Positions 1 to 28,003 of a stretch of DNA of 32,000 nt are shown piece by piece (position 1 is the stretch's first letter; every line of letters starts with the position of its first letter). The stretch comes from Clostridia bacterium (GTDB lineage Bacteria; Bacillota; Clostridia; TANB77; RGIG9151): positions 20,177-52,176 of the forward strand of contig JAGBIO010000002.1 in the NCBI GenBank assembly GCA_017934955.1, in the 5' to 3' direction. A program made the translations under genes and the position numbers. Below the pieces are notes generated by a model. It was not told the origin of the DNA and made no database searches. It saw only the letters and a program-made list of their open reading frames with translations.

Positions 1-133
1 TCTGCAATGATGGCACAATCATTGTAGGGACAGCATTCATGCTGTCCTGCCTTTCTACGCTTCCTGTGGACAGCATAAATGCTGTCCCTACAGTACTTGT
101 GCCATTTTTGTAATTTTAATTCTGAATTGTAAC
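1..133. repeat. Composite REP-like element, inverted doublet. Parts: hairpin CAATGAT-N6-ATCATTG (5-24); GTAG + core GGACAGCATTCATGCTGTCC (24-47, minus orientation); 20-nt spacer; core GGACAGCATAAATGCTGTCC + CTACA (68-92, plus orientation); right arm ending TCTGAATTGTAAC (121-133). The left edge may be cut by the window.
   Basis: Read directly. TGGCACAA (11-18) pairs with TTGTGCCA (97-104), so 11-104 is one long imperfect inverted repeat. The same architecture recurs at 9454-9653. Confidence 0.85.
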
Positions 134-205
134 GTTAATTTTATTCTATCATGATTATTTTATTATGCCAAGGTGATAAATTTGTGAAGTTATTTGGAAT
201 TTTTG

Positions 206-234
206 TTGAAAAATAGTTCAATTTGGAGTAAAAT
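206..234 (+). promoter_or_regulatory. Candidate sigma-A promoter for prs
   Basis: TTGAAA (206-211), 17-nt spacer, TAAAAT (229-234), about 35 nt upstream of the prs ATG. Confidence 0.35.
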
Positions 235-268
235 GGTAGTAGAATGAATTTTAGAAAGGGAGATTTTA

Positions 269-1207
269 ATGGATGAATTAAAAGTTTTTGGTTGTAATGC
301 AAGCAAAGAGTTTACTAAAGAAGTTTGCGATTGTCTCGGCGTTCATTTGGGTGAGAGTGAAGCATTTAAGTTTGACAATGACAATACATTTGTGAAGATT
401 TTAGAGACGGTAAGAGGAGACGACGTGTTTGTTATACAATCTTCTTGTCCGCCGGTGGATGAGAATTTTATGGAACTTTTAATTACGATTGACGCCTTAA
501 AGAGAGCGTCGGCAAAGCGGATTACAGCAATTCTTCCGTATTATCCTTATGCTCGTTCGGATAAGAAGGATCAGCCGAGAGTTTCTATTACTTCAAAGTT
601 GGTTGCAGATTTATTGACTGCAGCAGGGGCAAATCGTATTTTAACTTCAGATTTGCATGCCACACAGATTTTAGGATTCTTTAATATTCCGGCAGATCAG
701 TTGATTTTTGCGGATTTATTGGCAAACTATTTTAAGGAAAAGAACTTTGAGGATTTGGTAGTGGTTGCAACAGATGCAGGAAGCTCGAAAAAAGCGTATA
801 AATATGCGAAACGTTTGGATGCACCGATTGCGATGTTGGATAAAAGAAGATTGGGAAATTCGCAGGAAACATTGATTGAGAATATTGTGGGAGATGTAAC
901 GGGAAAAACTTGTGTTATTTTTGATGATGAAATCGATCGCGGAAGTTCGATTATGAATGCGGTTCGAGTTTTGGAAGATTATAATGTGAAGGAGATTTAT
1001 GCGGCTTGTTCGCATGGGGTATTGTCCGGTCCGGCAGTTGAGAGAATTAAAAATTCTTCTATTAAGGAATTGGTTATTACAAATACCGTTCCGCTTCCGC
1101 CGGAGAAGCAAATTGATAAGATTAAGGTGTTGACGGTTGCTCCGATTTTTGCGGAGGCAATTAAGAGAATTCATGAGGGACATTCGATGGGAGAAATGTT
1201 CTATTAA
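269..1207 (+). CDS. prs: Ribose-phosphate pyrophosphokinase (PRPP synthetase)
   Basis: 312-aa ORF with typical Prs layout (N-terminal MDELKVF..., PRPP-binding loop region VVVATDAGSSKKA, DDEIDRGSS). RBS AAGGGAG upstream of ATG 269. Confidence 0.93.
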   Translation: MDELKVFGCNASKEFTKEVCDCLGVHLGESEAFKFDNDNTFVKILETVRGDDVFVIQSSCPPVDENFMELLITIDALKRASAKRITAILPYYPYARSDKKDQPRVSITSKLVADLLTAAGANRILTSDLHATQILGFFNIPADQLIFADLLANYFKEKNFEDLVVVATDAGSSKKAYKYAKRLDAPIAMLDKRRLGNSQETLIENIVGDVTGKTCVIFDDEIDRGSSIMNAVRVLEDYNVKEIYAACSHGVLSGPAVERIKNSSIKELVITNTVPLPPEKQIDKIKVLTVAPIFAEAIKRIHEGHSMGEMFY

Positions 1208-1218
1208 TAGGAGGACGC

Positions 1219-1989
1219 ATGACAAAGATTGGCGTTTTTATCAATCAGGAAAAAGATACAGAGGGAAAGATTGCCGAAGAGATAGTATCCGCTGCCAAGA
1301 AATTGGGAGCGGACTGTTCTTTGGTGGAGAAAAATCAGTCGTATGATTTTGTCATTTCGGTTGGCGGAGACGGCACGTTTTTGGGAACTGCGAGAAAGTT
1401 TATGGAGTCGGGTACTCCGATTGTGGGAGTGAATTTGGGAAATTTGGGATATTTGACTGAAATTTCCAAAGAGCAAGTTCATGATGCTTTGGCACAGATT
1501 TTAGCGGGAAACTATACTGTAGAGGAACGGATTTTATTAGAAGCGGAGTTCTTGGGGCAAAAAATGTATGCCTTAAATGATATTGTGGTAAGCCGTGGGA
1601 TTCAGACCAAATTATTGGAGTTGAATTTATTTTTTGATGGAAAGTTTGTGGATCGATATCGGGCGGATGGTCTGATTTTAGCTACTCCTACGGGTTCTAC
1701 GGCGTATTCTTTGTCTTCCGGTGGTCCGATTGCAGAGCCGGCTTTGGATGTTTTGTTGGTGACGCCGATTTGTGCGCATTCGTTGTATCAAAGACCGATT
1801 ATTGTGCGTGGAGATACCGAGATAAGAGTGGAAACGCCGGGTTGTATGGTGGTGGCTGACGGACAGGAGTTACGGGAACATTATGAGGAAACTTCTGTGA
1901 TCATTCGGAAGTCGGAGAAAACGATAAAGTTGATGAAATTGAAAGATCATTTCTTTTTCGATACGGTGAGAAAGAAATTTATGAAATAG
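1219..1989 (+). CDS. nadK: NAD kinase
   Basis: 256-aa ORF with the GGDGT motif (VISVGGDGTFLG) and a conserved C-terminal NAD-kinase fold pattern. RBS GGAGG 8 nt upstream. The stop TAG 1987-1989 lies inside the first unit of the downstream tandem repeat. Confidence 0.92.
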   Translation: MTKIGVFINQEKDTEGKIAEEIVSAAKKLGADCSLVEKNQSYDFVISVGGDGTFLGTARKFMESGTPIVGVNLGNLGYLTEISKEQVHDALAQILAGNYTVEERILLEAEFLGQKMYALNDIVVSRGIQTKLLELNLFFDGKFVDRYRADGLILATPTGSTAYSLSSGGPIAEPALDVLLVTPICAHSLYQRPIIVRGDTEIRVETPGCMVVADGQELREHYEETSVIIRKSEKTIKLMKLKDHFFFDTVRKKFMK

Positions 1990-2148
1990 TTGTAAAGCAG
2001 GGAATGGACAGCATAAATGCTGTCCGTACAGAAGGTTGAGGAATAGTTGTAAAGTAGGGAATGGACAGCATAAATGCTGTCCGTACAGAAGGTTGAGAAA
2101 TAGATGTAAAGTAGAGAATGGACAGCATAAATGCTGTCCGTACAGAAA
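1986..2148 (+). repeat. Tandem array, 3 x 57 bp. Each unit carries one core palindrome GGACAGCATAAATGCTGTCC + GTACAG (cores 2006-2025, 2063-2082, 2120-2139).
   Basis: Units start at 1986, 2043 and 2100. Units 1 and 2 differ at 2 of 57 positions. Unit 3 diverges after GTACAGAA. Whole units are repeated, not only the hairpin. Confidence 0.92.
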
Positions 2149-2168
2149 TAGGTTGGCTGGAGGAAAAG

Positions 2169-3824: not shown

Positions 3825-3827
3825 GGC

Positions 3828-3856
3828 TTGACAAAGTTTTGTTTTTATGTTAACAT
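3828..3856 (+). promoter_or_regulatory. Candidate promoter for the 3889-7236 cassette
   Basis: TTGACA (3828-3833), 17 nt, TAACAT (3851-3856). There is no terminator between recN and this site, so read-through from recN is also possible. Confidence 0.3.
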
Positions 3857-3888
3857 AAATTATAATAGGTACTAAGGAGGAAATCCGA

Positions 3889-4452
3889 ATGAGTTTTTTG
3901 GAAGGAATAGAATTTCATGTCATTCAGCCGGTTGGCGTTAATGTTATGGCGTTTGCGATTAATTTTACGAAGAAAGAGCAGTGGTTGGAATCTCCTTTAT
4001 GTACTTTGGAGAAGTTAGAATATTCTGAAACGGCTGTAGATGGAAGAATTCAGCGGACTTTCTCAATTCCGTATTCCGATGAACCGATTCAAAATGTGGT
4101 GATTTTGTCTTTAGCGAAAACACGTTGTGTGGTTGGATACGGAAAAGTGGAGAATGGTGAGTTTGTTGAAGCGAAGGAAACCATTCAGCTTCAATACAGC
4201 AATTATGCGCAGGCAGATGTAGCCGAGAGAAATTATGAATTTACGTTTAATCCAAAGCGACAAATTGTTTTGGTGGATGTAGATGAGGGAAAACAACTGT
4301 TTCCGAGTATTTCAAAACCGGATATATTTGGAAATTTAAGAGGAGTTTATAAGCTAATTCCATATAGAAATTATATTGCACTTGAGATGAATGTAAGTAT
4401 TAAATTACCTAAGACGAAGGAATCGGAAGATTTGGAGAATATGCTGCTTTAG
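3889..4452 (+). CDS. Hypothetical protein (187 aa), first gene of the coupling-protein cassette
   Basis: Strong RBS AAGGAGG 8 nt upstream and host-like codon usage. I recognise no motif. Confidence 0.7.
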   Translation: MSFLEGIEFHVIQPVGVNVMAFAINFTKKEQWLESPLCTLEKLEYSETAVDGRIQRTFSIPYSDEPIQNVVILSLAKTRCVVGYGKVENGEFVEAKETIQLQYSNYAQADVAERNYEFTFNPKRQIVLVDVDEGKQLFPSISKPDIFGNLRGVYKLIPYRNYIALEMNVSIKLPKTKESEDLENMLL

Positions 4453-4465
4453 AGGGGGAATTTGA

Positions 4466-5074
4466 ATGAGTGAAATGGAATTTGGTTTGGCGGCGACGAG
4501 TTTGCGCTTTGAGGAAGGAAACACAATACATTTTGGACAAGGAAAGGCGATTCAATTAGAGGGGATTACTCCGCCGGTTGATATTGCGAGATTGAAGGCT
4601 GAATTGGCACAAGCACAAAGCTATGAAGCGACGTTAAATGTATTAAAGGCAAATGGTGTTGATACGAAGGCGTTTATTGAAGCAAATACTGCGTTAATGA
4701 TTTTAACTTCGCCGGAGGGTACGCAATTAATGTTGAATACAAATCCGGACGAGAAACTTACTTTAAATAAAACACTTAGTCCGGAAGTGGCATTGGAACT
4801 TCAGGATGCTGCCGCAAGAAATTCCGGTATTAGCATGAAAGAGATAGAAGAGATTTTGGTAGCGCGTGGATTGATGGAAGAGAAGAGACCAGATGTGGTT
4901 CATACGGAGGAAGATAGAGGATTTGTTCATGAAGATGCGAATATGGCGCCGGATTCTGTGTTTGGTGTAGCGGACAAGTCACAGACGGAGGCAGTAAGAG
5001 ATGCTACGCAGGAGGAAATGTACAGAAGACGTCAACACGAGAGAGAACATGGCATGGATGGCATGGACCGTTAA
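4466..5074 (+). CDS. Hypothetical protein (202 aa) with a charged, probably disordered C-terminal tail
   Basis: RBS GAGGGGG upstream. Starts 13 nt after the previous stop. C-terminus rich in E/D/R/H (EEMYRRRQHEREHGMDGMDR). No recognisable motif. Confidence 0.7.
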   Translation: MSEMEFGLAATSLRFEEGNTIHFGQGKAIQLEGITPPVDIARLKAELAQAQSYEATLNVLKANGVDTKAFIEANTALMILTSPEGTQLMLNTNPDEKLTLNKTLSPEVALELQDAAARNSGISMKEIEEILVARGLMEEKRPDVVHTEEDRGFVHEDANMAPDSVFGVADKSQTEAVRDATQEEMYRRRQHEREHGMDGMDR

Positions 5075-5118
5075 TCTGTTGATATTAAAATTTTGATTTA
5101 CGAAAGAGGAGAGAAATC

Positions 5119-7005
5119 ATGGCGAATTTCTTGAATGATAGAAAGAAGCGATACATATTTTTTGGAATTCTTTTATTGATACTGGACTTTTTCATTATTG
5201 GTTCATTTGCGGTGACGTATACGCAGTGTCTCCAGAATGGATGGGGTCTGTTTGAGGGTCTCAATAAAGGGGTTCCGTATTTTTTTAAGAATTTATGGCC
5301 GTTTACCATCCTTTCTTATTTGTTTCATTATGCCGAAACGAGAGCGATGTGGATGAATTTGGCACCGGCGGCGACTTTAATCGGATTAGTGGTTATTGTG
5401 GTTTTTGAAGTGAACCAGTTTTGGTTAAAAGGAGAATATGAAGGTGTTGAGCATGGTTCCAGCGGCTGGGCGGATGGTGAGCAATATCAGATCTTAAATC
5501 GGAATACCGGAATTATTTTGGCGCAGGATAATTATTTAACGACGGATAATAAGTTTATTAATAAGAATGTCTTAATCATAGGTGGTGCGGGTTCGAGAAA
5601 ATCCAGAGGTTATATTATGCCGAATATGTTGCAAATGTTGGGTTCTTATATCGTTACCGACCCGAAAGGTGAAAACTTTGATACAGCGGCGGGATTTTTA
5701 CGAGACAACGGTTATGAAGTGCGTTGTATCAATTTGGTAAACCCGGAGTGCAGTGACTCGTATAATCCGCTGTGGCATATCGGAAGTCCGTTGGACGTTG
5801 ATATTGTCAGTGATGCTTTGATTAAGAATACCAGTAAGGGTTCGACAAATGAGGACCCGTTCTGGCCGCAAGCAGAAAGAGCGTTACTAAATTCTTGTAT
5901 TTATTATTTGTTGAGTGAAGTGCCGAAGGAAGAGCAGTCTTTGGCAAGTTGTTTGGCGATGGTTCGTGCGGGGGAAAATTTCGATTGGATGGACGATGTA
6001 TTTATGCGTCTTCCGTTTGAACATATGGCGAGAAAGAGTTATGAGACATTTCGTTTGGCGGTAGATAAGACGAGAGCGGGAGTTTTGGTTGGATTGGCAA
6101 CGCGTCTTAACGTGTTTGATACACCGCAGATTTCTTCAATTACCGGTAGCAGTTCGATCGATATTGATGCGATGGGTGAGAAAAAAATGGCTACTTTCGT
6201 TATTACACCGGATAGCCATAGTGCGTTTAACTTTATTCCGACGATGTTCTTCGGTCAGGTTTTGCAGAGATTGTATTTTAAGGCGGATCAGAATGGAGGA
6301 AAGTTGGATATACCGGTCTTCTTCCTCCTCGACGAGTTTGCGAATACGGGGCAAATTCCGGATTTTAACCAGAAGTTAAGTACCAGCCGAAGCAGAAATA
6401 TTAATATCAGTATTGTATTGCAGAGTATTGACCAGTTGATGGATATGTATAAAGATATTTATGAGAATATTATGGCGAACTGTGATACGCATTTGTTCTT
6501 AGGCAGTCAGGCAGTAAAAACGTGTGAGTATATTTCGAAGAGTTTGGGAGAAACTACAATTAATAAGAAACAACATTCCGTTAGTGGTCCGTTGGAAGGC
6601 ATTTTATCGGCAGGCGCGGGTCAAAAGTCCGAGAGTATTTCAGATAATTCGATGGGTAGAGCTTTAATGACGATTGATGAGTTAAAGCGTTTGCCGTTAG
6701 ATACCAGTATCGTTATGGTAAAGGGTATGAAGCCGATTAAGGCGAAAAAATATGATGTTTCGATGCATCCGAAGGATAAGGAGAGAATGAAGTGCAAGTT
6801 GGATCATAATGATCCGACGTTGAATCATCGTATGGAGTACAAGATTGTATATCCGTATGGCTTAAAGACCGGCCCGGCAGATACTTCTTCGCCGCTTCAT
6901 CCGAACGGAATGAATCCGGAGCCGGAAGTAGATTTGGGGGACGATGATATTCAAAAGCAGTTGGAAGCGAAATTTGATGAATTATTTGGTAGTTTAAATT
7001 CCTAA
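5119..7005 (+). CDS. VirD4/TraG/TraD-family type IV coupling protein-like ATPase (membrane anchored)
   Basis: N-terminal hydrophobic segments (IFFGILLLILDFFIIGSFAV; LAPAATLIGLVVIVVF). P-loop IIGGAGSRKSRG. Walker B block FFLLDEFANTGQIPDF followed by SRSRNINISIVLQSIDQL, the pattern typical of T4CPs. RBS AGAGGAG. Confidence 0.82.
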   Translation: MANFLNDRKKRYIFFGILLLILDFFIIGSFAVTYTQCLQNGWGLFEGLNKGVPYFFKNLWPFTILSYLFHYAETRAMWMNLAPAATLIGLVVIVVFEVNQFWLKGEYEGVEHGSSGWADGEQYQILNRNTGIILAQDNYLTTDNKFINKNVLIIGGAGSRKSRGYIMPNMLQMLGSYIVTDPKGENFDTAAGFLRDNGYEVRCINLVNPECSDSYNPLWHIGSPLDVDIVSDALIKNTSKGSTNEDPFWPQAERALLNSCIYYLLSEVPKEEQSLASCLAMVRAGENFDWMDDVFMRLPFEHMARKSYETFRLAVDKTRAGVLVGLATRLNVFDTPQISSITGSSSIDIDAMGEKKMATFVITPDSHSAFNFIPTMFFGQVLQRLYFKADQNGGKLDIPVFFLLDEFANTGQIPDFNQKLSTSRSRNINISIVLQSIDQLMDMYKDIYENIMANCDTHLFLGSQAVKTCEYISKSLGETTINKKQHSVSGPLEGILSAGAGQKSESISDNSMGRALMTIDELKRLPLDTSIVMVKGMKPIKAKKYDVSMHPKDKERMKCKLDHNDPTLNHRMEYKIVYPYGLKTGPADTSSPLHPNGMNPEPEVDLGDDDIQKQLEAKFDELFGSLNS

Positions 7006-7065
7006 AATCCCTATGTATTATTTTGTTCGGAAAGAAAAAAATAATACCATAGAGAGGTGAGAAAT

Positions 7066-7236: not shown

Positions 7237-7248
7237 AAGTATTGAAAA

Positions 7249-7283
7249 CTAAGGACAGCATATGGTATGCTGTCCTTAGTTTT
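7249..7283 (+). terminator. Intrinsic terminator whose stem contains the repeat-family core
   Basis: Perfect 14-bp stem CTAAGGACAGCATA / TATGCTGTCCTTAG (7249-7262 / 7266-7279), 3-nt loop, then TTTT (7280-7283). Confidence 0.7.
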
Positions 7284-7313
7284 AGGAAATTTATCGGGAA
7301 GGTGGAGAAGAAT

Positions 7314-7946: not shown

Positions 7947-7958
7947 CGGAGGATTTTT

Positions 7959-8882
7959 ATGGCGATTAATAAGGTGTTTCAGGCGGCATTAAAGGCGCTT
8001 TCTTATCCAGATTTGGATTTTAAAAAGAATTACGGAATGGCGAGAAAGTTTGAGGGGACTATTTATAAAGAATATGCCGGCGATGATGTGGAGAAGCAGG
8101 ATCATTTTTTTGATTTTGAGGAGAGAAAAATCCGAGTACGGTCTTATCGGGCAAAATCAGCGGAAGAAAAGAGCATTTTGGTTTTTATTCATGGCGGTGG
8201 CTGGGTGTTAGGCTCGGTGGATACTTATGATGATACCTGTGCAGAACTTTCAAAGGCGACGAATTCTACCGTTCTTTCGATTGATTACAGTTTATCGCCG
8301 GAGGTGAAGTTTCCGGTGGCTTTGGAAGAATGCTATAAATTGATAAAAGACATCTTTTGGATGAATGAAGTTCTTTACAGGGAAAAAGCGGAGATTACTT
8401 TAATTGGAGATAGTGCCGGCGGGAATCTTGTTGCGGCTTTATCGATGATGTTTCGGGATAGAGGGGAATTTTCGGTTGTAAAGCAGATTTTGATTTATCC
8501 GGTGACCTACTATACGCATAATCCGGCTCTTTCGCCGTTTGAATCGGTTAGAAGCAACGGAGAAAATTATTTGCTTACAGCGAAGAGATTATGCGATTAT
8601 ACCGAGATGTATGTGAATCAAGAGGAAAATTTAGAGAATCCGTATTTGGCACCGTTATTGGCGAAGGATTTTTCGAATTTGCCGGATACGTTATTGATTA
8701 CGGCGGAATATGATCCTTTGCGAGATGAGGGCGAGTCTTTTGGCGTGAAGTTGAAAGATGCGGGAAATTATGTAGAAATGTATCGTGTGGAAGATACGTT
8801 GCATGGCTTTTTTCACCTTCCGCCTAAGTTTTCTTATGTGCAGACGGTGTATCAATATATCAATCATTTTTTGAATCGCTGA
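7959..8882 (+). CDS. Alpha/beta hydrolase, esterase/lipase of the HSL-like (fold-3) type
   Basis: Oxyanion motif HGGGW, nucleophile elbow GDSAGG, C-terminal DPLRDE and H (LHGF). RBS GGAGG. Confidence 0.85.
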   Translation: MAINKVFQAALKALSYPDLDFKKNYGMARKFEGTIYKEYAGDDVEKQDHFFDFEERKIRVRSYRAKSAEEKSILVFIHGGGWVLGSVDTYDDTCAELSKATNSTVLSIDYSLSPEVKFPVALEECYKLIKDIFWMNEVLYREKAEITLIGDSAGGNLVAALSMMFRDRGEFSVVKQILIYPVTYYTHNPALSPFESVRSNGENYLLTAKRLCDYTEMYVNQEENLENPYLAPLLAKDFSNLPDTLLITAEYDPLRDEGESFGVKLKDAGNYVEMYRVEDTLHGFFHLPPKFSYVQTVYQYINHFLNR

Positions 8883-9257: not shown

Positions 9258-9333
9258 GGTGTGCCTGAGACGATTCGAACGTCCGGCCAACGGCTTAGAA
9301 GGCCGTTGCTCTATCCTGCTGAGCTACAGGCAC
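9257..9333 (-). tRNA. tRNA-Arg (anticodon TCT), CCA encoded
   Basis: The reverse complement folds as a cloverleaf: acceptor GTGCCTG/CAGGCAC, D arm GCTC..GAGC, anticodon stem ACGGC/GCCGT with loop CTTCTAA, T arm GGACG TTCGAAT CGTCT, discriminator A + CCA. 77 nt. Confidence 0.93.
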
Positions 9334-9351
9334 ATGTCTTATTGCTTATAT

Positions 9352-9381
9352 ATTATATACCAAATTAGTTATAAATTGCAA
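9352..9381 (-). promoter_or_regulatory. Candidate promoter for tRNA-Arg
   Basis: On the minus strand: TTGCAA (9376-9381), 18 nt, TATAAT (9352-9357), 18 nt upstream of the mature 5' end. Confidence 0.3.
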
Positions 9382-9453
9382 TAGTTTTTGTAAAAAAAAT
9401 TTAGAAAGTGGTTACAGGTCAGGCTTAACAACTTATTATTTTCGCGAAAGCCT

Positions 9454-9653
9454 TGTAGGGACAGCATTCATGCTGTCCTTTATTCCACATTTTCTGTGGA
9501 CAGCATAGTAGTCAAAACTTCCCAATCACTTCGTTCTTGGAGTTTTTTTACACAGGACGTACAAGCCATTCACTTCGTTCATGGTGTTACGTCCGCGAAT
9601 GCTGTCCCTACACTATTTATGCTTTTTCTATAAATTTAAGTCTGACCAGTAAC
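9454..9653. repeat. Second inverted doublet. Parts: TGTAG + core (9459-9478, minus orientation); 19-nt spacer; plus-oriented core split into 9498-9507 and 9598-9607 + CTACA (9608-9612); right arm ending TCTGACCAGTAAC (9641-9653).
   Basis: Aligns module by module with 23-133, including the approximately 45-nt right arm. Confidence 0.85.
9508..9597 (+). mobile_element. 90-nt structured insert (MITE-like) sitting exactly in the loop of a core palindrome
   Basis: GGACAGCATA | insert | AATGCTGTCC, versus the intact GGACAGCATAAATGCTGTCC at 68-87. The insert starts GTAG. It holds an 11-nt direct repeat TCACTTCGTTC (9526-9536, 9570-9580), each inside a small hairpin (CCAA..TTGG, CCAT..ATGG), and an outer stem GGACGTA/TACGTCC (9555-9561 / 9588-9594). 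Confidence 0.55.
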
Positions 9654-9693
9654 AGAAATTGGTTTCAGTTCAGACTAAAGTTGTTGCAAATAT

Positions 9694-9767
9694 ATCGGTA
9701 CGTCAAGGACGCCGTCTCCTACAATGGTTGTAGCATCATTATAAAAAGCTATATTCTGAACTGTAAC
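9694..9767 (+). repeat. Composite element with the second core type: ATCGGTACGTCAAGGACGCCGTCTCC + TACA (9694-9723), degenerate CAATGGT..ATCATT hairpin, right arm AAAGCTATATTCTGAACTGTAAC
   Basis: The reverse complement of 9694-9723 matches 18138-18167 at 27 of 30 positions. The downstream modules match 22501-22551. Confidence 0.75.
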
Positions 9768-9846
9768 TTATTTTCGGATAATCTGCAAGAACTTTATTGG
9801 TACTTTTGATGATTTGTGATAGAATCTTAGCAAGGAGGGTGAGATT

Positions 9847-10605
9847 ATGAAAAATTTATTTGATTTGACGGGTAAAGTAGCGATTGTGACGGGTTCGAGT
9901 CGTGGTTTAGGACAGGCGATTTGTGTGGCTTTGGCGGAGAATGGTGCGAATGTGGTTGGAGTGAGTCAGTCGAGTAGTGAGGAGACAAAGTCGTTGGTAG
10001 AAAAAGCGGGTGGTAAGTTTGCTTGGGTGAAGGCGGATCTTACTACTTTAGAGGCGGTTGATGAGATTATAAATACGGCGAAAGAGACGTTTGGAAGAGT
10101 GGATATTTTAGTAAATAATGCGGGAACGATTCGTCGTGCGGATGCGGTGGATTATACCGAGAAGGATTGGGACGATATTTTGAATTTGAATTTAAAAACA
10201 GCGTTTTTCTTATCGCAGAGAGTGGCGAAGGAGTTTATGGAACAGAAACAGGGCGGAAAGATTGTGAATATTGCTTCTATGCTTACATTCCAAGGGGGTA
10301 TTCGTGTGCCGGCTTATACGGCAAGCAAGAGTGCGATTGGCGGTGTGACAAAGGCGTTGGCGAATGAGTGGGCGAAGTATGGAATTAATGTGAATGCGAT
10401 TGCACCGGGTTATATGGCGACGGATAATACGCAGGCGCTTCGTGCGGATGAAAAGAGAAGCGAGGAGATTTTGAGCCGAATTCCGGCTGGACGTTGGGGG
10501 ACACCGGAGGATTTAATGGGCGCGGTCGTTTTCTTGTCTTCGGCGGCTTCGGACTATGTGAATGGACATATTTTGGCGGTTGATGGTGGTTGGTTGGCGA
10601 GATAA
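9847..10605 (+). CDS. kduD: 2-dehydro-3-deoxy-D-gluconate 5-dehydrogenase (SDR family)
   Basis: TGSSRGLG cofactor motif and YTASK catalytic motif. The C-terminal half (NIASMLTFQGGIRVPAYTASKS...NVNAIAPGYMATDNT...IPAGRWG...VDGGWLAR) is very close to KduD as I remember it. Confidence 0.85.
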   Translation: MKNLFDLTGKVAIVTGSSRGLGQAICVALAENGANVVGVSQSSSEETKSLVEKAGGKFAWVKADLTTLEAVDEIINTAKETFGRVDILVNNAGTIRRADAVDYTEKDWDDILNLNLKTAFFLSQRVAKEFMEQKQGGKIVNIASMLTFQGGIRVPAYTASKSAIGGVTKALANEWAKYGINVNAIAPGYMATDNTQALRADEKRSEEILSRIPAGRWGTPEDLMGAVVFLSSAASDYVNGHILAVDGGWLAR

Positions 10606-12425: not shown

Positions 12426-12451
12426 GGACAGCATAAATGCTGTCCGTACGG
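12426..12451 (+). repeat. Single core palindrome GGACAGCATAAATGCTGTCC + GTACGG between thiI and mutL
   Basis: Read directly. Lies 9 nt after the thiI stop. Confidence 0.9.
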
Positions 12452-15342: not shown

Positions 15343-15591
15343 ATGGCAGGAGCGAATTTACAGGATTTATTTTTGAACCAATTACGAAAGGAACATTCGG
15401 TGGTGAGTGTTTATTTGGTGAATGGTTTTCAGCATAAAGGGGTTATTAAGGGATTTGATAATTTTGTTGTGATGCTTGAGAATGATGGAAAGCAGTTTTT
15501 AATTTATAAACATTCGATTGCGACGATTAATCCGTTAAAGCCGATTAAGACGATGCTGGGAACGGAGGACCAACCGATTAATTTTGTGTAA
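15343..15591 (+). CDS. hfq: RNA chaperone Hfq
   Basis: Sm1/Sm2 motifs ([33 protein letters not shown]). RBS GGAGGAG. Confidence 0.92.
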
Positions 15592-18137: not shown

Positions 18138-18186
18138 TGTAGGGGACGGCGTCCTCGACGTCCCGATGTATAGTCTGACTTGTAAC
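18138..18186. repeat. Second-core element: TGTAG + GGGACGGCGTCCTCGACGTCCCGAT (18138-18167), then right arm TCTGACTTGTAAC (18174-18186)
   Basis: 27/30 match to the reverse complement of 9694-9723. GGACG-G-CGTCC is itself palindromic. It shares the TGTAGGGAC start and the ..TGTAAC arm with the main family. Confidence 0.75.
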
Positions 18187-18517: not shown

Positions 18518-18521
18518 GGAA

Positions 18522-18576: not shown

Positions 18577-18673
18577 GGACAGCATGAATGCTGTCCGTAC
18601 GGAGATTGAGATATAAAGTGTTACTAAAGGCATTAATGAGAAGGAATGGACAGCATGAATGCTATCCGTACGG
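18577..18673 (+). repeat. Two core palindromes 71 nt apart: 18577-18596 + GTACGG, and 18648-18667 + GTACGG (the second has one stem mismatch, GCTATCC)
   Basis: Read directly. Lies between secG and rnr. Confidence 0.9.
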
Positions 18674-20629: not shown

Positions 20630-20630
20630 A

Positions 20631-20691: not shown

Positions 20692-20766
20692 AAACACATT
20701 ATGGAACTTTGAAAAAGGGTGTCGATTGGCAGACCGGACGAATAAAAAAGCAGGGGGACGTAGAAG

Positions 20767-21453: not shown

Positions 21454-21456
21454 GAG

Positions 21457-21487
21457 AAAAGAGGCTGTCTTGGGACGGCCTCTTTTC
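21457..21487 (+). terminator. Intrinsic terminator
   Basis: 9-bp stem GAGGCTGTC / GACGGCCTC (21461-21469 / 21474-21482), loop TTGG, then TTTT. Confidence 0.75.
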
Positions 21488-21585
21488 CTTAATGGACAGC
21501 ATGAATGCTGTCCGTACAGTGAGATAGAAATATATTTCCTTAATGGACAGCATGAATGCTGTCCGTACAGTAAGATAGAAAACAT
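21487..21585 (+). repeat. Tandem array, 2 x 51 bp, each unit with core GGACAGCATGAATGCTGTCC + GTACAG (21494-21513, 21545-21564)
   Basis: Units start at 21487 and 21538. Lies in the convergent gap before the thioesterase stop. Confidence 0.9.
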
Positions 21586-21587
21586 GG

Positions 21588-22319: not shown

Positions 22320-22341
22320 TTTGATTCCTCCTTAGTTATTG

Positions 22342-22551
22342 GGACACAATAAATTGTGTCCGTACAATGATTGCGATATCATCGTAGAAAGCGATATTTT
22401 GAACTGTAATATTTTTAGCTTAGAATTAGGACAGCATGAATGCTGTCCGTACGGTGCAGAGCTCTTTTAGATTAGAATGTGGACAGCATGAATGCTGTCC
22501 CTACAATGATAGCACACAATCATTGTAGAAAGCTATATTTTGAACTGTAAC
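22342..22551 (+). repeat. Cluster of three cores plus modules. Parts: variant core GGACACAATAAATTGTGTCC + GTACA (22342-22366) with hairpin-2 and right arm (to 22410); core 22429-22448 + GTACGG; core 22481-22500 + CTACAATGAT-N7-ATCATTGTAG (22501-22528) + AAAGCTATATTTTGAACTGTAAC (22529-22551).
   Basis: Read directly. Fills almost the whole gap between the thioesterase start and the pseudouridine synthase stop. Confidence 0.9.
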
Positions 22552-22561
22552 AGTTGTAGGC

Positions 22562-23413
22562 TTAGAATTTAGGACATAGAGTTACTTCTTTGCCGTTTAG
22601 GTAGTTTAGGATTCCGGCGTCGTTGGAGAAGCAGAAGCGGAGTTTGTAGGCGGTGAGTTCTTGGTATTTTTTCCCGTAACGTTTATTGGCTTCATAATCT
22701 CCGTATTTTCCGTCTCCGATGATGGGATGTCCGATATAGGCTAAATGGGCGCGGATTTGGTGGGTTCTTCCGGTGACAAGTTCGACTTCTAAGTAGCTGG
22801 AGTCGTTGTCTTCTTTTGTAACGGTGTACTTTGTGGTAATTGGGAGATAGCCTGTTTTTTGAGTGTCGCTGATATAGACCATGCTTTTTTTTCGGTCTTT
22901 GAAAAGATAGTGATTTAGGGTTTCTGATTTTTTAGGCATTTTTCCGAGAACATGGCATTGATAGTATTTTTTGATTTGTTTGGTTTGTATTTTTTCTTCC
23001 AATATTTTTAGGGTTTCTTCGTTTTTTGCGAAGAGAACAAGCCCGGCGGTGTTTCTGTCTAAGCGGTGAGCGGGGTATAGGTAGGCGTTATTGTATTGTT
23101 TTTTTAGAATGTCGAGTAGGGAGGTTTCTTCGATGGATTTTAATACCTCGATTCCTTGTGGTTTATTGGCAATTAAGATGTTGTCGTCTTCATAGATGAT
23201 TTCGGCTTTTTCGGTGGGAGTGGCTAAATAAATTTCTACAATATCCCCCGCGAAGATATTGACGTTTTGGGATACGCGTTTCCCGTTTATTTTGATGTCT
23301 TTTTTTCGGAGTAGCTTTTGAAGAGTGTTGTAGGAGATTTTTGGGTAGAAGTTTTGAATGGAAGACAAGAGTTTTAAGTTATTGTGTTTTTGGGGAACGG
23401 TAAATTTTATCAT
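22562..23413 (-). CDS. RluA-family pseudouridine synthase with N-terminal S4 domain
   Basis: Catalytic motif HRLDRNTAGLVLFAK and TGRTHQIRAH. Start moved to ATG 23413 (RBS GGAGGAAAATC), because the track extension MYGQHSCCP... is the translated repeat. Confidence 0.88.
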   Translation of the reverse strand: MIKFTVPQKHNNLKLLSSIQNFYPKISYNTLQKLLRKKDIKINGKRVSQNVNIFAGDIVEIYLATPTEKAEIIYEDDNILIANKPQGIEVLKSIEETSLLDILKKQYNNAYLYPAHRLDRNTAGLVLFAKNEETLKILEEKIQTKQIKKYYQCHVLGKMPKKSETLNHYLFKDRKKSMVYISDTQKTGYLPITTKYTVTKEDNDSSYLEVELVTGRTHQIRAHLAYIGHPIIGDGKYGDYEANKRYGKKYQELTAYKLRFCFSNDAGILNYLNGKEVTLCPKF

Positions 23414-23447
23414 GATTTTCCTCCTTATAAAGTGGATTTTAATTGAT

Positions 23448-23472
23448 GGACAGCATGAATGCTGTCCGTACA
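23448..23472 (+). repeat. Single core GGACAGCATGAATGCTGTCC + GTACA between mutS2 and the pseudouridine synthase gene
   Basis: Read directly. Confidence 0.9.
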
Positions 23473-23504
23473 AGGGTTTTGTATAACATTAGACTTGTTT
23501 CATA

Positions 23505-25856
23505 TTATTTTAATTCTGCAATTGTGACGCCGAGGTCGCCTTCGCCGAATTCTCCTAAACGATAACTTTTGACATTTGGATGATTTTTTAGAAATTCGTG
23601 TACCGCTTTTCTTAAGATTCCTTCGCCTTTTCCGTGTACAATGCGAATGGTGGAGAGGTTGGCGATTAAGGCGTGGTCGATGTATTTTTCGAGTTCGTAT
23701 AAAGCTTCGTCGACGTGCATATGGCGAAGCATGATTTCGTTACTGATGTTTTGTGCTTGTATCTTGGATGAAACCGATATTTTGACGTTGTTGACGGTGG
23801 ATTGCGGCTGTTTTGTCGGGCGGAGTTTGGAGATGTGGAGTTTGGATTTTACGATACCGGCTTGGACTTGTACGTTTTGGTCGGAGTCGGGGAGGGAGAG
23901 GACGGAGGCTTCTTGGTCGAGAGATGGGATGTAGACATTCATGCCGACTTTGATTTCAAATGGGGTGTAAGGGGTTTCGGTGTCTTCGGTTTTAACGTAA
24001 GTTTTGGAAAGTTGCTTTTTGATTTTGCTTTTGGCATTATCAAATTTTTTATTCATTTCGTTATATTTTAATTTTTTTGCTTCTTTGATTTCTTTCATGG
24101 TTTCTTTAGCGGTTTCCTCAGCGTCTAAAAGAATACCGGTCGCTTCTTCGCGTGCTTTCGTGAGAATTTTTGTTTTGTGTTCTTCTAATTTTGCTTTACT
24201 TTCGGCGAGTTCTTTTTTGAGTTTTTCGATTTCGGCGAGTTCTTGTTGTGCTTGATTTCTTTGTTGTTCTAAGGTTTGTCTGTCTTTTTGAAGTTCTGAA
24301 ATAATATCTTCGAATTTTACTTGTTCATGTGCGATGAAGTTTTTTGCGTTTTCTAAGATATATTCGGACAGTCCTAATTTTTTTGAGATGGCGAAGGCGT
24401 TACTTTTGCCGGGTAAGCCGATCATCAGTTTATAGATTGGATTTAGGGTGTTGACGTCGAATTCGCAGGAGGCGTTTTTGATGCCGGGGGTAGTAAGAGC
24501 GTAGGTTTTTAGTTCGCTGTAATGGGTGCTTGCGATTGTTCGGCATCCGAATTTATATAAGTAGTCTAAAATGGCAACCGCGAGGGCAGAGCCTTCGACA
24601 GGATCGGTGCCGGATCCGAGTTCGTCGAGGAGGACAAGAGAATTTGGAGTGATGTTTTTTAGGATGGAGATGATGTTGGTCATGTGGGAGGAGAAGGTGC
24701 TGAGGCTTTGTTCGATGCTTTGTTCGTCTCCGATGTCGGCGTAGACTTTATCAAATACAGCGATTTCCGAGTTTTCGAGGGCAGGGATGAATAAGCCGGA
24801 GTATGCCATTAGGGTTAAGAGCCCGACGGTTTTTAGGGTTACGGTTTTTCCGCCTGTATTTGGCCCTGTGATGATAAGTGACCGGAAGTCTTTTCCGATC
24901 CAGATGTCAATTGGTACGACTTTCTTGTCCGGTATGAGGGGGTGACGTGCTTGTAACAGATGAATATAACCGTTTTGATTGAGGTTTGGTGCGAAGGCTT
25001 TTTGCTGGAGGGAGAGTTTTGCTTTTGCGAAGATGAAGTCGAGGTTTGCAAGTGTTTTTTGCAGGTAGGTGAGTTCTTGGGTGATGGGCCATATTTTTGC
25101 GGATAATTCCGATAGAATTTTTTCGATTTCACTTTTTTCGTGTAAGTAGAGTTCGTGGATTCGGTTGTTGGCTTCGACGACTGCCATCGGTTCGATGAAT
25201 AGGGTTGAGCCGGTAGAGGAGGAATCGTGGACGAGTCCGGGAATGTGACTGCGGTATTCTTGTTTTACCGGAATGACGTAACGGTCATTTCTTAGCGTTA
25301 CGATACTTTCTTGTAAGTATTTTGAATAAGAACCGCCGCGAATGATGGCGTTGATTTTTTCTTTGATATTGTTTTCTTCCGATTGGATTTTTTGTCGGAT
25401 CTGGTAGAGTTCGGGGGAGGCGTGGTCGGAGATATGGTCGGTGTTGTCGATGGCTTGGTAGATGGCGGTTTCGATACCTGTGTTTTGGTAAAGGGCGTTG
25501 AATTTTTCCGATAGAATCGGGAAGTTGTCGTCTAAATTTTCCGATAGTTTTTTTAGCTTTTTGGAACCGCGAAGAGTGTCGGCGATGTTGAGGAGTTCTT
25601 CCGGCGTGAGAGTGGAGGAGATTTCGGCTCTTTTGATGGCGGTTCGAATGTCATGAATTCCGGAAAATTGCGGTGTTTCGTAGCGTAGGATGATGTTGAC
25701 GGCTTCTTGGGTTTCTGCGAGTTTTTCGGAAATTTCTTGGTAGTCCCAAGCAGGTTCGATGGTTTCGCAAAGTTCACGTCCGGGTTTTGTGAGGGCGTGA
25801 GCGGTTAATTTTTCTGCTATTTTATTATATTCTAACGTTTTTAATAATTTATTCAT
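23505..25856 (-). CDS. mutS2: Endonuclease MutS2 (MutS ATPase + C-terminal Smr domain)
   Basis: Walker A GPNTGGKT, DELGSGTDP, long coiled-coil, Smr domain (IVHGKGEGILRKAVHEFLK). RBS GGAAAGGA. Confidence 0.92.
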   Translation of the reverse strand: MNKLLKTLEYNKIAEKLTAHALTKPGRELCETIEPAWDYQEISEKLAETQEAVNIILRYETPQFSGIHDIRTAIKRAEISSTLTPEELLNIADTLRGSKKLKKLSENLDDNFPILSEKFNALYQNTGIETAIYQAIDNTDHISDHASPELYQIRQKIQSEENNIKEKINAIIRGGSYSKYLQESIVTLRNDRYVIPVKQEYRSHIPGLVHDSSSTGSTLFIEPMAVVEANNRIHELYLHEKSEIEKILSELSAKIWPITQELTYLQKTLANLDFIFAKAKLSLQQKAFAPNLNQNGYIHLLQARHPLIPDKKVVPIDIWIGKDFRSLIITGPNTGGKTVTLKTVGLLTLMAYSGLFIPALENSEIAVFDKVYADIGDEQSIEQSLSTFSSHMTNIISILKNITPNSLVLLDELGSGTDPVEGSALAVAILDYLYKFGCRTIASTHYSELKTYALTTPGIKNASCEFDVNTLNPIYKLMIGLPGKSNAFAISKKLGLSEYILENAKNFIAHEQVKFEDIISELQKDRQTLEQQRNQAQQELAEIEKLKKELAESKAKLEEHKTKILTKAREEATGILLDAEETAKETMKEIKEAKKLKYNEMNKKFDNAKSKIKKQLSKTYVKTEDTETPYTPFEIKVGMNVYIPSLDQEASVLSLPDSDQNVQVQAGIVKSKLHISKLRPTKQPQSTVNNVKISVSSKIQAQNISNEIMLRHMHVDEALYELEKYIDHALIANLSTIRIVHGKGEGILRKAVHEFLKNHPNVKSYRLGEFGEGDLGVTIAELK

Positions 25857-25937
25857 AGTTTTTTCCTTTCCTGATTTACGATAAGGAAATTATAGCAGAG
25901 ATTTGCGAGGATATCAATAAATTTGTTTGTTGCGGGG

Positions 25938-25966
25938 TTGTATTCCGGGCAAGAAAAGTATATGAT
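25938..25966 (+). promoter_or_regulatory. Candidate promoter for the 26089 gene
   Basis: TTGTAT (25938-25943), 17 nt, TATGAT (25961-25966). These are the same hexamers as the secG candidate. This would put the repeat at 26014-26041 in the 5' UTR. Confidence 0.4.
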
Positions 25967-26013
25967 AATAGTGGATTGAAAAAAAATATTTTTAATGGTC
26001 TGTTTGTTGAAAT

Positions 26014-26041
26014 GGAGACAGTATGAATGCTGTCCGTACGG
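26014..26041 (+). repeat. Degenerate core GGAGACAGTATGAATGCTGTCC + GTACGG
   Basis: Aligns to the family with a 2-nt insertion and one stem mismatch. Confidence 0.7.
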
Positions 26042-26088
26042 GACAGAGGAACTTTAATGAAAAGGAAAATTACGGAGGAGGAATTGGG

Positions 26089-27861
26089 ATGGAATACAAG
26101 GATGATGAAAATTTGGAGAAAGAGAATTTGAAGGAAGAAACTGAGAATAAAGTTACGGAAGAAACGACAGTGGAATCTGCGGAGAAGGAAAATGGAAACG
26201 GAGGAGAAAATGTTTCTGAGCAAGAAATTCCGAAGAATAATAATCTTGCGCTTTCTTTTGTTGTGACGTTTCTGATTATTGCGGTGATTGTTGTTTTTGT
26301 GATTATGACCGTTGTTCCGCTGGTTTCGTCGAAGGAGAAGTTTTTTAAGATTTCGCAGAATGCGGGTGCCGAAATCGGGAATATGATAGAGAATTTGGGC
26401 GATTCTGTGTTTGGAAAGATGCTGACCATCGGACCGAAAGAGAAATTTCAGGCTACGACAGATTTGGAGTTGGCCTTGGAGACGAAGGATCAAGAATTAT
26501 TGGATATTATTTATGGGTTTAAGAACTTAAAATTAACTTTAAATCAAGATTTTGATTTAGGAAATCATTATACGGCGTCTGAGGCGAAGGTTTTGATAAA
26601 TGACGAGGATTTTGTGTCGGCGGATGTTTTGGAGGATGATACTTATATTGCGTTAAAGTCTGCCGGGATCGCGGATCAGTATTTGAGAGCGGAGAAGAAT
26701 AATCTTCATTCGGTTTGGCATCGTTTGAATATGGAGGGGCCGGATCAATTAGGGTCTCAAAATGAGGTTTTTGAAAAGTTACAGTTGACAAAAGCGGAAA
26801 AGAAAGAGTTTGAGAATACATTTAAACGAGTATTTAATGCGGTGAAGAAGTTATATACTAACGCTGATTTTACTGAGGGGACGGAGGCAATTCATTATAA
26901 CAATGCGGATAGGACACTTTCTTATGTGGATTTGAAGTTGACTTCGAAGAAGATGAATGATTCTGTGATTGCGATTTTGGAACAACTTCAGAAGGAGACG
27001 AAGGCGATTGATATTCTTGTTGCGAAGTTAAACGGTGTGGGAGAAGTTTATGAAGCAATGGGATATGAGAATACGGTATGGACGCAAGAAGAAGTTTTGA
27101 ATATGATTGAGGATATGTTAGAGGAGATTCGTGATTTCGAGGTTTCGGAAGAGGAGGGAATGCTTCTTCGCGTGTATTATTCCGGTTGGGATTTAACGCC
27201 GATGGGATTGGCGATGTTTATGTTGCCGACAGATGAAGTGTATGATTTTAAGTATGCGGATGGCTTTAATAAGTTGCTTGCAGATAAAGAGGGCGGCTAT
27301 TATGAATATTCTGATCAAATTCAGGAATATGTAGATGTGGTTTCGACAAATGCGAAGGTAGATACGCATCAATTTGAGATTCGTTATAAGAATTATACGT
27401 CCGGTGAAGTGCTTAGTGATTATACAGAGAAATATACTTTTACAGTGGATTATTCGAATAAGAATAAATTGATTTGCAATTTGAAGGATCCTGACGGTTA
27501 CATTGATTATACGTTGAGTGGTGAGATTAACGGTAAGGTGCAGACGCTTAAGCTAACGATGAAGGACTTTTACGAGGAAGGCGAAACGAATGATTTGAAT
27601 TTGACGGTTACTTTAAATCGGAATGCTGATGTGACTCGGAAAGAGTTGGCTGCGGGTGAGTTCTTGGATTTGAATAATGCTTCGGAGGAAGAATTTAATG
27701 CTACGATTGCGAATGTGAAGGCGAAGTGGGATGCTTTTGTGGCGACGAATGAAACGAAAATCAATCAGTTTTCGACGATTGTGGGGGCGTATATGACGAT
27801 GTTGATGCCTTATGATCCATATGATTACAGCGGTTTGATGTTGGAGGATGCACAAGGTTAA
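26089..27861 (+). CDS. Hypothetical membrane-anchored protein (acidic N-terminus, one TM, large extracytoplasmic domain)
   Basis: Start ATG 26089 after GGAGGAGG. TM LALSFVVTFLIIAVIVVFVIMTVVPLV. No recognisable family. Confidence 0.75.
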   Translation: MEYKDDENLEKENLKEETENKVTEETTVESAEKENGNGGENVSEQEIPKNNNLALSFVVTFLIIAVIVVFVIMTVVPLVSSKEKFFKISQNAGAEIGNMIENLGDSVFGKMLTIGPKEKFQATTDLELALETKDQELLDIIYGFKNLKLTLNQDFDLGNHYTASEAKVLINDEDFVSADVLEDDTYIALKSAGIADQYLRAEKNNLHSVWHRLNMEGPDQLGSQNEVFEKLQLTKAEKKEFENTFKRVFNAVKKLYTNADFTEGTEAIHYNNADRTLSYVDLKLTSKKMNDSVIAILEQLQKETKAIDILVAKLNGVGEVYEAMGYENTVWTQEEVLNMIEDMLEEIRDFEVSEEEGMLLRVYYSGWDLTPMGLAMFMLPTDEVYDFKYADGFNKLLADKEGGYYEYSDQIQEYVDVVSTNAKVDTHQFEIRYKNYTSGEVLSDYTEKYTFTVDYSNKNKLICNLKDPDGYIDYTLSGEINGKVQTLKLTMKDFYEEGETNDLNLTVTLNRNADVTRKELAAGEFLDLNNASEEEFNATIANVKAKWDAFVATNETKINQFSTIVGAYMTMLMPYDPYDYSGLMLEDAQG

Positions 27862-27869
27862 AGATTTTT

Positions 27870-27906
27870 GGCTCTTGTCTTTTGTGAGGCAAGGGTCTTT
27901 TGTTTT
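27870..27906 (+). terminator. Intrinsic terminator
   Basis: 10-bp stem GGCTCTTGTC / GGCAAGGGTC (with G-U pairs), 8-nt loop, then a T-run. Confidence 0.55.
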
Positions 27907-27973
27907 CTGAGAAATTTTTGTTATGGATCAGACAATCTTTTTTATATCTTCCTAAAATAATGATACAATTTGT

Positions 27974-28003
27974 TGTAGGAACACAATAAATTGTGTCCCT
28001 ACA
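27974..28003. repeat. Variant core flanked on both sides by the tail: TGTAG-GAACACAATAAATTGTGTCC-CTACA
   Basis: Same CA/TG stem variant as 22342-22361, with one extra A in the 5' arm. Confidence 0.8.

Follow-up and report, generated by a model that had tools for sequence, protein, structure and literature searches.

What are the short, nearly identical hairpins that recur between the genes of an uncultured Clostridia bacterium, and how did they come to be there? The question is raised by a stretch of 32,000 nucleotides (assembly GCA_017934955.1, contig JAGBIO010000002.1, positions 20,177 to 52,176), here called the window, in which an earlier note, made from the letters of the DNA, had described a dense family of palindromes adjoined by GTAG or GTAC tetranucleotides. 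The repeat family is real and belongs to the GTAG-tagged superfamily of repetitive extragenic palindromic (REP) sequences (PMC3733652). The hairpin appears, from its sequence, to be of the type that accompanies REP-associated tyrosine transposases (RAYTs) of subclass 2.4, equivalent to group 4 (PMC6006769, PMC5581495). The hairpins of the window are probably REPs of this superfamily that are mobilised by a RAYT.

The exact pattern searched for was GGACAGCATNNATGCTGTCC, i.e. GGACAGCAT-NN-ATGCTGTCC, and 100 dinucleotide-preserving shuffles served as the control. The pattern occurs 13 times in the window and in none of the shuffles. A relaxed search adds the copies at 18648 (one mismatch) and 26016 (two mismatches), and a search allowing up to five mismatches adds those at 22342 and 27979, in which the four or five differences are compensatory and result in GGACACAAT..ATTGTGTCC. 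The split copy described in the earlier note is genuine: GGACAGCAT occupies 9498-9506 and AATGCTGTCC occupies 9598-9607, with about 90 nucleotides in the loop. The total is 13 exact copies and 5 variants, all tagged, compared to 0 expected, giving a density of 18 per 28 kb. Nineteen copies had been claimed, and all of them can be located, 13 as exact copies and 6 as variants, but the copy at 7253 is a doubtful member of the family. It is also the exception to the claim that CTAC or GTAC abuts every copy, which is true for 18 of the 19; the flanks at 7253 are CTAA and TTAG, without GTAG or GTAC.

The conserved unit, as it emerges from the stacked copies, is 26 nucleotides long and consists of the hairpin, [G/C]TAC and two purines, while the other flank is without conservation. 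On the opposite strand the unit reads 5'-GTAG or 5'-GTAC and then the hairpin. The tag is GTAC in 12 of the 18 tagged copies and CTAC, which is GTAG on the other strand, in 6. It is one-sided in all of them except the copy at 27979, which is tagged on either side. Copies with a 3' tag have the loop GA or AA and the two flipped copies have TC, and therefore each copy has a defined orientation. A single unit, with 9-bp arms and a 2-nucleotide centre, folds as an 8-bp stem with a 4-nucleotide loop. The folding energy is -8.4 kcal/mol for DNA (z about -5) and -13.6 to -15.4 kcal/mol for RNA.

By the description of the superfamily in Di Nocera 2013 (PMC3733652), its members are short palindromes of 20-40 bp with a stem of 6-13 bp and a small loop, have an unpaired GTAG-type tetranucleotide at one end only, and are extragenic, occurring as singles, dimers and clusters. 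All three properties are found in the window, and the family, which the earlier note did not recognise, thus has a known place. Members of the superfamily are also numerous throughout their genomes; the counts obtained here are local, at 18 copies per 28 kb in the window and 4 per 10 kb in a contig of a sister species (L089). The parallel drawn in that note with the E. coli hairpins and their adjacent GTAG is supported as far as the logic of a REP is concerned, but most of the tags here are GTAC and one copy is untagged. Every copy is intergenic, as had been stated, once the over-long mechanical open reading frames (ORFs) of recN, mutL, a rluD-like gene and a 612-residue ORF at 26023-27861 are trimmed to starts that have a ribosome-binding site upstream. 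A literature search with the literal hairpin sequence returned only unrelated primer matches.

The link to RAYTs comes from other genomes. A scan of one genome per species for the exact hairpin retrieved at least 86 stretches of DNA. Among the matches listed, the hairpin is multi-copy in many Chloroflexota/Anaerolineae metagenome-assembled genomes (MAGs), and also in two high-GC Clostridiales MAGs, a Muribaculum MAG and another Bacteroidetes MAG. GTAG abuts one side of the 20-nucleotide hairpin in nearly all genomes among these matches, and the few untagged single matches (L007, L028 and one from Poribacteria) look like chance or unrelated hairpins. In the Muribaculum (Bacteroidota) stretch L082, two copies of the hairpin flank a RAYT-type ORF of 172 residues (2084-2602) with the motifs HFH, WQ and YIRNN. 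The single match of its product in the Protein Data Bank, and hence the sole solved structure matched, is the E. coli TnpA-REP (4ER8), the HUH and tyrosine regions of which are aligned. The product also matches the NCBIfam family REP_Tyr_transpos (NF047646) with an E value of 2.5e-7, and some of its 283 homologs are named RayT or contain PF01797. A homolog of this protein is present in a Clostridia MAG (L085), in which the hairpin is positioned about 170 nucleotides upstream of the start codon and is accompanied by sister hairpins. A hairpin identical to that of the window therefore adjoins a RAYT-type Y1 HUH gene in two genomes.

With a profile of the L082/L085-type proteins, 80 metagenomic loci were retrieved. 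Of these 80 RAYT relatives, 72 have perfect hairpins with a GTAG tag and the foot RGRC within 400 nucleotides, and 59 have a tagged palindrome inside the gene, at a median of +259 nucleotides. According to Quentin et al. (PMC6006769), the insertion of a REP inside the gene is a feature unique to subclass 2.4, the RAYTs of which have the motifs NH[IFV]H, WQ and YIxNNP. The L082-type proteins have NHFH, WQ and YI(R/E)NNV, as opposed to YIxNNP, and on a comparison of motifs subclass 2.4 / group 4 is the most probable class of the putative RAYT that would serve the window. Bertels et al. (PMC5581495) found group 4 RAYTs to be common in Cyanobacteria, Chlorobia and Caldilineae and to occur in 17 classes, and the hosts of subclass 2.4 / group 4 systems comprise Cyanobacteria, Bacteroidetes, Chloroflexi and scattered phyla. 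The REPs of these systems (Quentin 2018; Bertels 2017) share with the window the 5' GTAG, the perfect hairpin with the foot RGRC and double-hairpin long forms (PMC6006769), and the identical hairpin, GGACAGCAT..ATGCTGTCC, adjoins RAYTs with NH[FI]H, WQ and YIxNN in L082 and L085. In contrast to group 4, the host here is a Clostridia MAG, with a putative RAYT, and the tags are mostly GTAC. Furthermore, the local density of copies is far above the approximately 14 occurrences of flanking 16-mers reported for group 4 (PMC5581495).

A protein search seeded with the RAYT fragment of the L085 Clostridia MAG gave eight matches, none of them from the source genome. The best of these, P0241, adjoins genes with Por_Secre_tail domains, neighbours that we take to mark Bacteroidota. 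The lineage motif GGACAGCATRAATGCTGTCCGTAC had no match in a metagenome scan.

The stems of these hairpins covary. In the fetched loci, sequences were chosen by the 8-mer GTAGGGAC alone; of its 226 occurrences, 173 precede a perfect hairpin, and the distal stems of these are of more than 20 kinds. Stem positions 5-8 of 93 distinct 24-mers contain 101 double-sided changes, compared to 44.6 in shuffles, a value that 0 of 500 shuffles reach. The proportion of paired cells drops from 79% to 35-41% upon sliding the partner column. What is conserved is the structure. The tag and the foot GGAC/GTCC are fixed and the distal stem is free, which fits the recognition of the tag and the stem base by a protein. 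The arm GGACAGCAT is one of many permitted distal stems, and its identity across phyla could be due to horizontal transfer or to limited sequence space.

The copies differ between sister species. The contig L089 is from a species whose RNase R is 88% identical to that of the window, at 81% nucleotide identity, and it has 4 copies per 10 kb. It carries GGTCAGCATGAATGCTGACC with a GTAC tag, in which an A:T pair is swapped to T:A at stem position 3. The compensatory stem variant, GGTCAGCAT..ATGCTGACC, with its GTAC tag, is found at sites that are not orthologous to those of the window copies. The sites compare as follows.

Upstream of secG: no copy in the window; two copies in L089.
Downstream of rnr: a terminator and no copy in the window; one copy in L089.
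The secG-rnr gap: two copies in the window; none in L089.
The thiI-mutL gap: an intact copy in the window; a decayed copy with the old stem, GGATAGTAT..ATGCTGTCC-GTAC, in L089.

Copies are gained, lost and replaced, and one stem variant supplants another. The earlier note had proposed looking for presence/absence polymorphism in relatives and held that strictly syntenic copies, invariant across distant relatives and with no Y1 transposase anywhere, would speak against a REP-like interpretation. The polymorphism is found in L089, in both the presence and the position of copies, and the site-by-site comparison contradicts invariance. Lineage-specific REP variants and their turnover, which are among the characteristics of a REPtron, are thus seen between the window and L089. 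Another characteristic, a RAYT gene with its cognate REPs at its flanks in the same genome, is not seen within the window; RAYT-type genes beside the identical hairpin are seen in L082 and L085. Relatives with an RNase R 74-78% identical to that of the window have no such hairpins and have ordinary terminators instead.

One of the more distant relatives, L090 (GCA_964316295.1), is without the REP and contains two other palindromes, each present twice. One is GGACGTAA-CACTGCGTG-TTT-CACGCAGTG-ACACGTCC at 4919-4955 and 8734-8770, and the other is ATCCTACA-NN-TGTAGGAT at 4885-4902 and 15444-15461.

The window contains two head-to-head dimers (5-110 and 9454-9612), both with outward tags, four head-to-tail arrays and five singletons (12426, 22342, 23448, 26016 and 27979). 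In the arrays, which have periods of 57, 71, 51 and 52 nucleotides, the flanking DNA is duplicated as well. The individual features are listed here in order, followed by a module that accompanies some of them.

24-47, plus strand: REP copy with 5' GTAG on the plus strand, opposite in direction to most copies; forms the left half of the head-to-head dimer 5-110.
68-91, minus strand: REP copy with CTAC 3' on the plus strand (GTAG on the minus strand); right half of the dimer 5-110.
5-110, unstranded: head-to-head doublet resembling a REP doublet forming hairpin (REPIN), with 43-nucleotide arms, 86% complementary, and a 20-nucleotide spacer.
1973-2147, minus strand: head-to-tail array of three 57-nucleotide units (89-90% identical) in the nadK-recN gap.
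7245-7283, unstranded: 18-bp perfect hairpin holding the GGACAGCAT core, untagged and terminator-like; doubtful member.
9455-9478, plus strand: REP copy with 5' GTAG on the plus strand; left half of the second head-to-head dimer (9454-9612).
9498-9611, minus strand: REP copy with a CTAC tag, split by the loop insertion of about 90 nucleotides at 9507-9597.
12426-12449, minus strand: lone GTAC-tagged REP in the thiI-mutL gap; decayed orthologous copy in L089.
18577-18671, minus strand: head-to-tail pair (18577 and 18648) with a 71-nucleotide period and GTAC tags in the secG-rnr gap; site empty in L089.
21494-21568, minus strand: head-to-tail pair (21494 and 21545) with a 51-nucleotide period and GTAC tags, between convergent genes.
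22342-22387, minus strand: sub-family REP GGACACAAT..ATTGTGTCC with two compensatory pair changes and a GTAC tag, followed by a second hairpin, GTACAATGAT..ATCATCGTAG.
22429-22528, minus strand: head-to-tail pair, 22429 (GTAC) and 22481 (CTAC), with a 52-nucleotide period.
23448-23471, minus strand: lone GTAC-tagged REP between mutS2 and the rluD-like gene, both on the minus strand.
26016-26039, minus strand: decaying REP with two mismatches in the left arm and a GTAC tag.
27975-28002, unstranded: sub-family REP tagged on both sides, GTAG-GAACACAAT AA ATTGTGTCC-CTAC.
22534-22551, plus strand: module C, TATATTYTGAACTGTAAC, which goes with the long-form elements.

The first doublet (1-115) has a DNA folding energy of -35 kcal/mol (z about -10). 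The array at 1973-2147 has one GTAC-tagged REP per unit, with the hairpins at 2006, 2063 and 2120. Tandem arrays with a period of about 60 nucleotides also surround the RAYT gene of L082 (1730-2060 and 2660-2750); they are composed of a sister REP, GGACGCCAT(A/G)CATGGCGTCC-CTAC, and mirror the head-to-tail arrays of the window. The hairpin at 7245-7283, with an RNA folding energy of -26 kcal/mol, has the flanks AAAACTAA/TTAGTTTT in place of a tag. It may have begun as a REP and become a bidirectional terminator, or may itself be a terminator-like sequence from which the family arose.

Several copies occur in a long form, in which a second hairpin, [C/G]TACAATGAT-N-ATCATTGTAG, sequesters the tag and is followed by the 18-mer TATATTYTGAACTGTAAC. 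These composites of REP, second hairpin and module C are about 70-90 nucleotides long. Copy 22481 is an example of a double-hairpin long form, as it is followed by the hairpin CTACAATGAT-N8-ATCATTGTAG. Module C is a conserved 18-mer with further copies at 116, 9750, 18169 and 22393 on the plus strand and at 9662 on the minus strand, and it was not found in the relatives L089-L094. Its interpretation as a promoter was rejected: downstream of three copies (e.g. 9750 and 18169) there are, by eye, better -35/-10 candidates, and two further copies are in a block of minus-strand genes, where the neighbours run the opposite way.

A second GTAG-tagged repeat, GTAGGRGACGGCGTCCTYGACGT, is present in two copies, at 18139-18161 (plus strand) and 9700-9722 (minus strand), each followed by module C. 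The Logan contig L001 terminates within the copy at 18139. The loop insertion at 9507-9597 contains the direct repeats TCACTTCGTTC[T/A]TGG at 9526 and 9570 and an imperfect palindrome, GGACGTAC...GTTACGTCC; it has no second copy in the window and, when 9330-9850 was searched at E<=1, no Rfam match. At 22480-22507, 22339-22368 and 21493-21520, the REP and its tag form a promoter-like string, TGGACA-16 nt-TACAAT or TACAGT, and therefore some insertions could create outward promoters.

The orientation of the copies is closely tied to the strand. The G+C content of the window is 41%, its GC skew is +0.25 to +0.54, and C constitutes 12.4% of the plus strand, which is an extreme asymmetry; the skew of the sister contig L089 is +0.38. 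The plus strand is therefore the leading strand, as follows from what is well established on GC skew and from the orientation of the genes. The tag is 3' on the G-rich plus strand at each of the eight independent loci of the window (singletons or arrays) and at all four in L089. Three of these loci are among minus-strand genes, and flipped copies occur only within the two head-to-head dimers, as partners. The orientation is the same regardless of gene direction and therefore follows the replication strand, not transcription. In the other phyla (L002-L087), the GTAG-bearing strand of the identical hairpin is locally C-rich in 51 cases versus 32 (p about 0.05), and in 6 versus 1 where the absolute skew exceeds 0.1, the same direction as in the window. 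This trend is weak and is not robust to the choice of skew threshold.

In the mechanism proposed here, the unit would be a 26-nucleotide non-autonomous element that folds, in single-stranded DNA, into a hairpin of 8-9 bp with GTAG or GTAC at its 5' side. As in the systems that have been characterised, a RAYT (TnpA-REP, of the Y1 HUH type) encoded elsewhere in the genome would bind the tag and the hairpin foot, GGAC...GTCC, on the single-stranded DNA, and would then cut and rejoin nearby. Cutting and rejoining would give rise, between genes, to new copies, to doublets placed head to head and to arrays running head to tail. We infer a RAYT in the source genome, its moving of the copies and its cleavage chemistry. 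The RAYTs characterised so far act on single-stranded REPs, depend on the 5' GTAG and have CT or CA dinucleotides as cleavage sites; the tag of the Marinomonas RAYT is a guide, and its change from GTAG to GTAC shifted cleavage to GA/GT (PMC8266576). The mixture of GTAG and GTAC in the window may point to a RAYT that is either tolerant or retargeted. A fuller version, in which the REP system is still active, is replication-polarised and has a retargeted guide, is rather doubtful. Because copies sit inside operons, transcribed hairpins (RNA fold -14 to -15 kcal/mol) may alter mRNA ends as a secondary effect.

A number of observations weigh against mobilisation by a RAYT. No Y1 or RAYT gene is present in the window, as had been noted earlier, according to Pfam scans of 29 ORFs and to phmmer and jackhmmer searches over all ORFs of the window of at least 90 residues, and the copy number is a count for the window. 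Under curated cut-offs the L082 protein falls short, with 30.7 bits versus the NCBIfam cut-off of 80, and has no Pfam match. GTAC accounts for two thirds of the tags (12 of 18), though this form is absent from the text of the 2013 survey, including the degenerate tags that it lists, and head-to-tail arrays predominate, though they are rare according to the same survey (PMC3733652). The tag is on the C-rich strand, the template for leading-strand synthesis. In the IS608 model, the active strand is the lagging-strand template, and the tagged strand of the window is opposite to that naive expectation.

The group 3 REPs and REPINs of Pseudomonas and of Stenotrophomonas maltophilia (SMAG, with an 8-bp perfect palindrome, a 3-nucleotide loop and a length of 23 nucleotides) share with the window the short perfect palindrome, the 5' GTAG, the intergenic location and the occurrence as doublets and clusters, and their GTAG guides the choice of the cleavage site (PMC8266576). 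They belong to another RAYT group and another host phylum, and inverted doublets make up only 2 of about 11 loci here, where head-to-tail copies and singletons dominate. The E. coli REPs, which form bacterial interspersed mosaic elements (BIMEs) and are served by TnpA-REP (group 2, 4ER8), have in common with the window a GTAG 5' of an extragenic hairpin and mosaic clusters. They are, however, longer, imperfect, bulged, GC-rich and of alternating orientation, whereas the hairpins here have perfect 9-bp stems in DNA of 41% GC and mostly one orientation. The ends of IS200/IS605 insertion sequences (IS608, ISDra2) and their miniatures have a single-strand hairpin with a 5' guide tetranucleotide and the same strand-specific, replication-linked biology (PMC8266576, PMC6006769), but the unit here is only 26 nucleotides, with no internal transposase and no asymmetric ends. 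Such repeats are reported by the 2013 survey in Proteobacteria, Cyanobacteria, Chloroflexi and the Planctomycetes-Verrucomicrobia-Chlamydiae (PVC) group, with Firmicutes unmentioned (PMC3733652).

The hairpins might instead be primarily RNA elements, i.e. 3'-end stabilisers, attenuators or terminators, which are kept by selection on RNA structure and in whose spread no dedicated transposase took part. Each copy lies between cistrons or downstream of a gene, the RNA hairpin has a stable fold (-13.6 to -15.4 kcal/mol), the untagged hairpin at 7245-7283 resembles a bidirectional terminator, and Di Nocera 2013 makes the case for an RNA role of many REPs (PMC3733652). However, the hairpins lack a following U-tract, just 2 of about 18 were flagged as terminator-like (both of them on the non-coding strand), and the terminator-like total equals the shuffle expectation. 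In the block of minus-strand genes it is the DNA strand, and not the direction of transcription, that the orientation tracks. An RNA role does not account for the conserved unpaired tag, the adjacency to RAYTs across phyla or the non-syntenic copies of the sister species, and as a primary role it appears improbable. An RNA role is compatible with the REP interpretation as a secondary, exapted one. Intrinsic (Rho-independent) terminators were considered separately and rejected, because the 3' flanks are GTACRG followed by purine-rich sequence and the two copies that were flagged are both on the opposite strand. Known RNA families are rejected as well: the earlier note had recommended an RNA-family database search, and with Rfam 15 the hairpin has no match, the whole window matching tRNA-Arg only. 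Nor are the repeats a CRISPR array, as the sequence between the hairpins of the 57-nucleotide array is itself repeated (89-90%) and the remaining copies are scattered.

There are two further explanations. The repeats could be miniature derivatives of a classical IS200/IS605 element (palindrome-associated or miniature inverted-repeat transposable elements, PATEs or MITEs), mobilised by the TnpA of an insertion sequence or by another transposase. The ends of such elements have the same design of a hairpin and a 5' tetranucleotide (PMC8266576), and the composite forms of about 70-90 nucleotides, together with the insertion of about 90 nucleotides in one REP loop, would suit this origin. It appears slightly less probable than an RNA role. 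Against it are the conserved unit of just 26 nucleotides, which lacks distinct left and right ends, the Pfam and protein searches that found no TnpA or TnpB gene in the window, and the genes beside identical hairpins, which are RAYT-type (best matches 4ER8 and NF047646) and not IS200 TnpA. Alternatively, the hairpins could be strand-polarised binding or architectural sites for a nucleoid protein, gyrase or a translocase, with one orientation kept by selection. The uniform orientation on the G-rich leading strand (8 of 8 loci in the window, 4 of 4 in L089) is as this would have it, and E. coli BIMEs are described as sites to which several proteins bind (PMC2817692). But tandem duplication together with flanking DNA, decayed copies, stem switching and the adjacency to RAYTs elsewhere point to a mobile repeat, and the polarity could equally stem from a strand-specific mechanism of insertion; this is the least probable of the explanations.

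The genes around the repeats form a housekeeping stretch of the Clostridia type, with prs, nadK, recN, thiI, mutL, miaA, hfq, sepF, divIVA, secG, rnr and mutS2. Between recN and the housekeeping genes is a segment, 3889-7005, that holds a gene for a type IV coupling protein of the VirD4/TraG type (5119-7005), preceded by two ORFs of 187 and 202 residues without a Pfam match; no other transfer genes are in view. The first and last genes of the window matched only short contigs that are identical or near-identical to it (99.4-100%), and three Logan contigs end exactly in REPs. Such ends were discarded as a sign of copies outside the window, because the window copies alone suffice to break a de Bruijn graph.

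The family is not a new kind of element, but it adds a member of a known REP type in uncultured Clostridia. To our knowledge, what has been worked out on REP-RAYT systems comes almost wholly from Proteobacteria, and a family that is dense and seems to have been active recently, in an uncultured Clostridia lineage, widens the host range of REPs. A practical effect of the repeats is that they break short-read assemblies and inflate mechanical ORF calls at recN, mutL and other genes. Unusual, and worth following up, are the GTAC tags, the bias towards head-to-tail arrays and the strictness of the strand polarity. The compact perfect-stem substrate, with its natural GTAG and GTAC alternatives, is suited to testing the guide model of cleavage-site choice, and the extreme strand asymmetry of the genome makes a replication-linked insertion bias easy to read. 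Should the polarity hold throughout the genome and reverse at the origin and the terminus, it would provide evidence from nature that the RAYT-driven spread of REPs is tied to the replication fork and prefers a defined strand. The presence of the identical hairpin in Chloroflexota, Bacteroidota and Clostridia would in that case suggest horizontal transfer of a REP-RAYT pair across phyla, and such transfer would run against the mainly vertical picture of groups 2 and 3.

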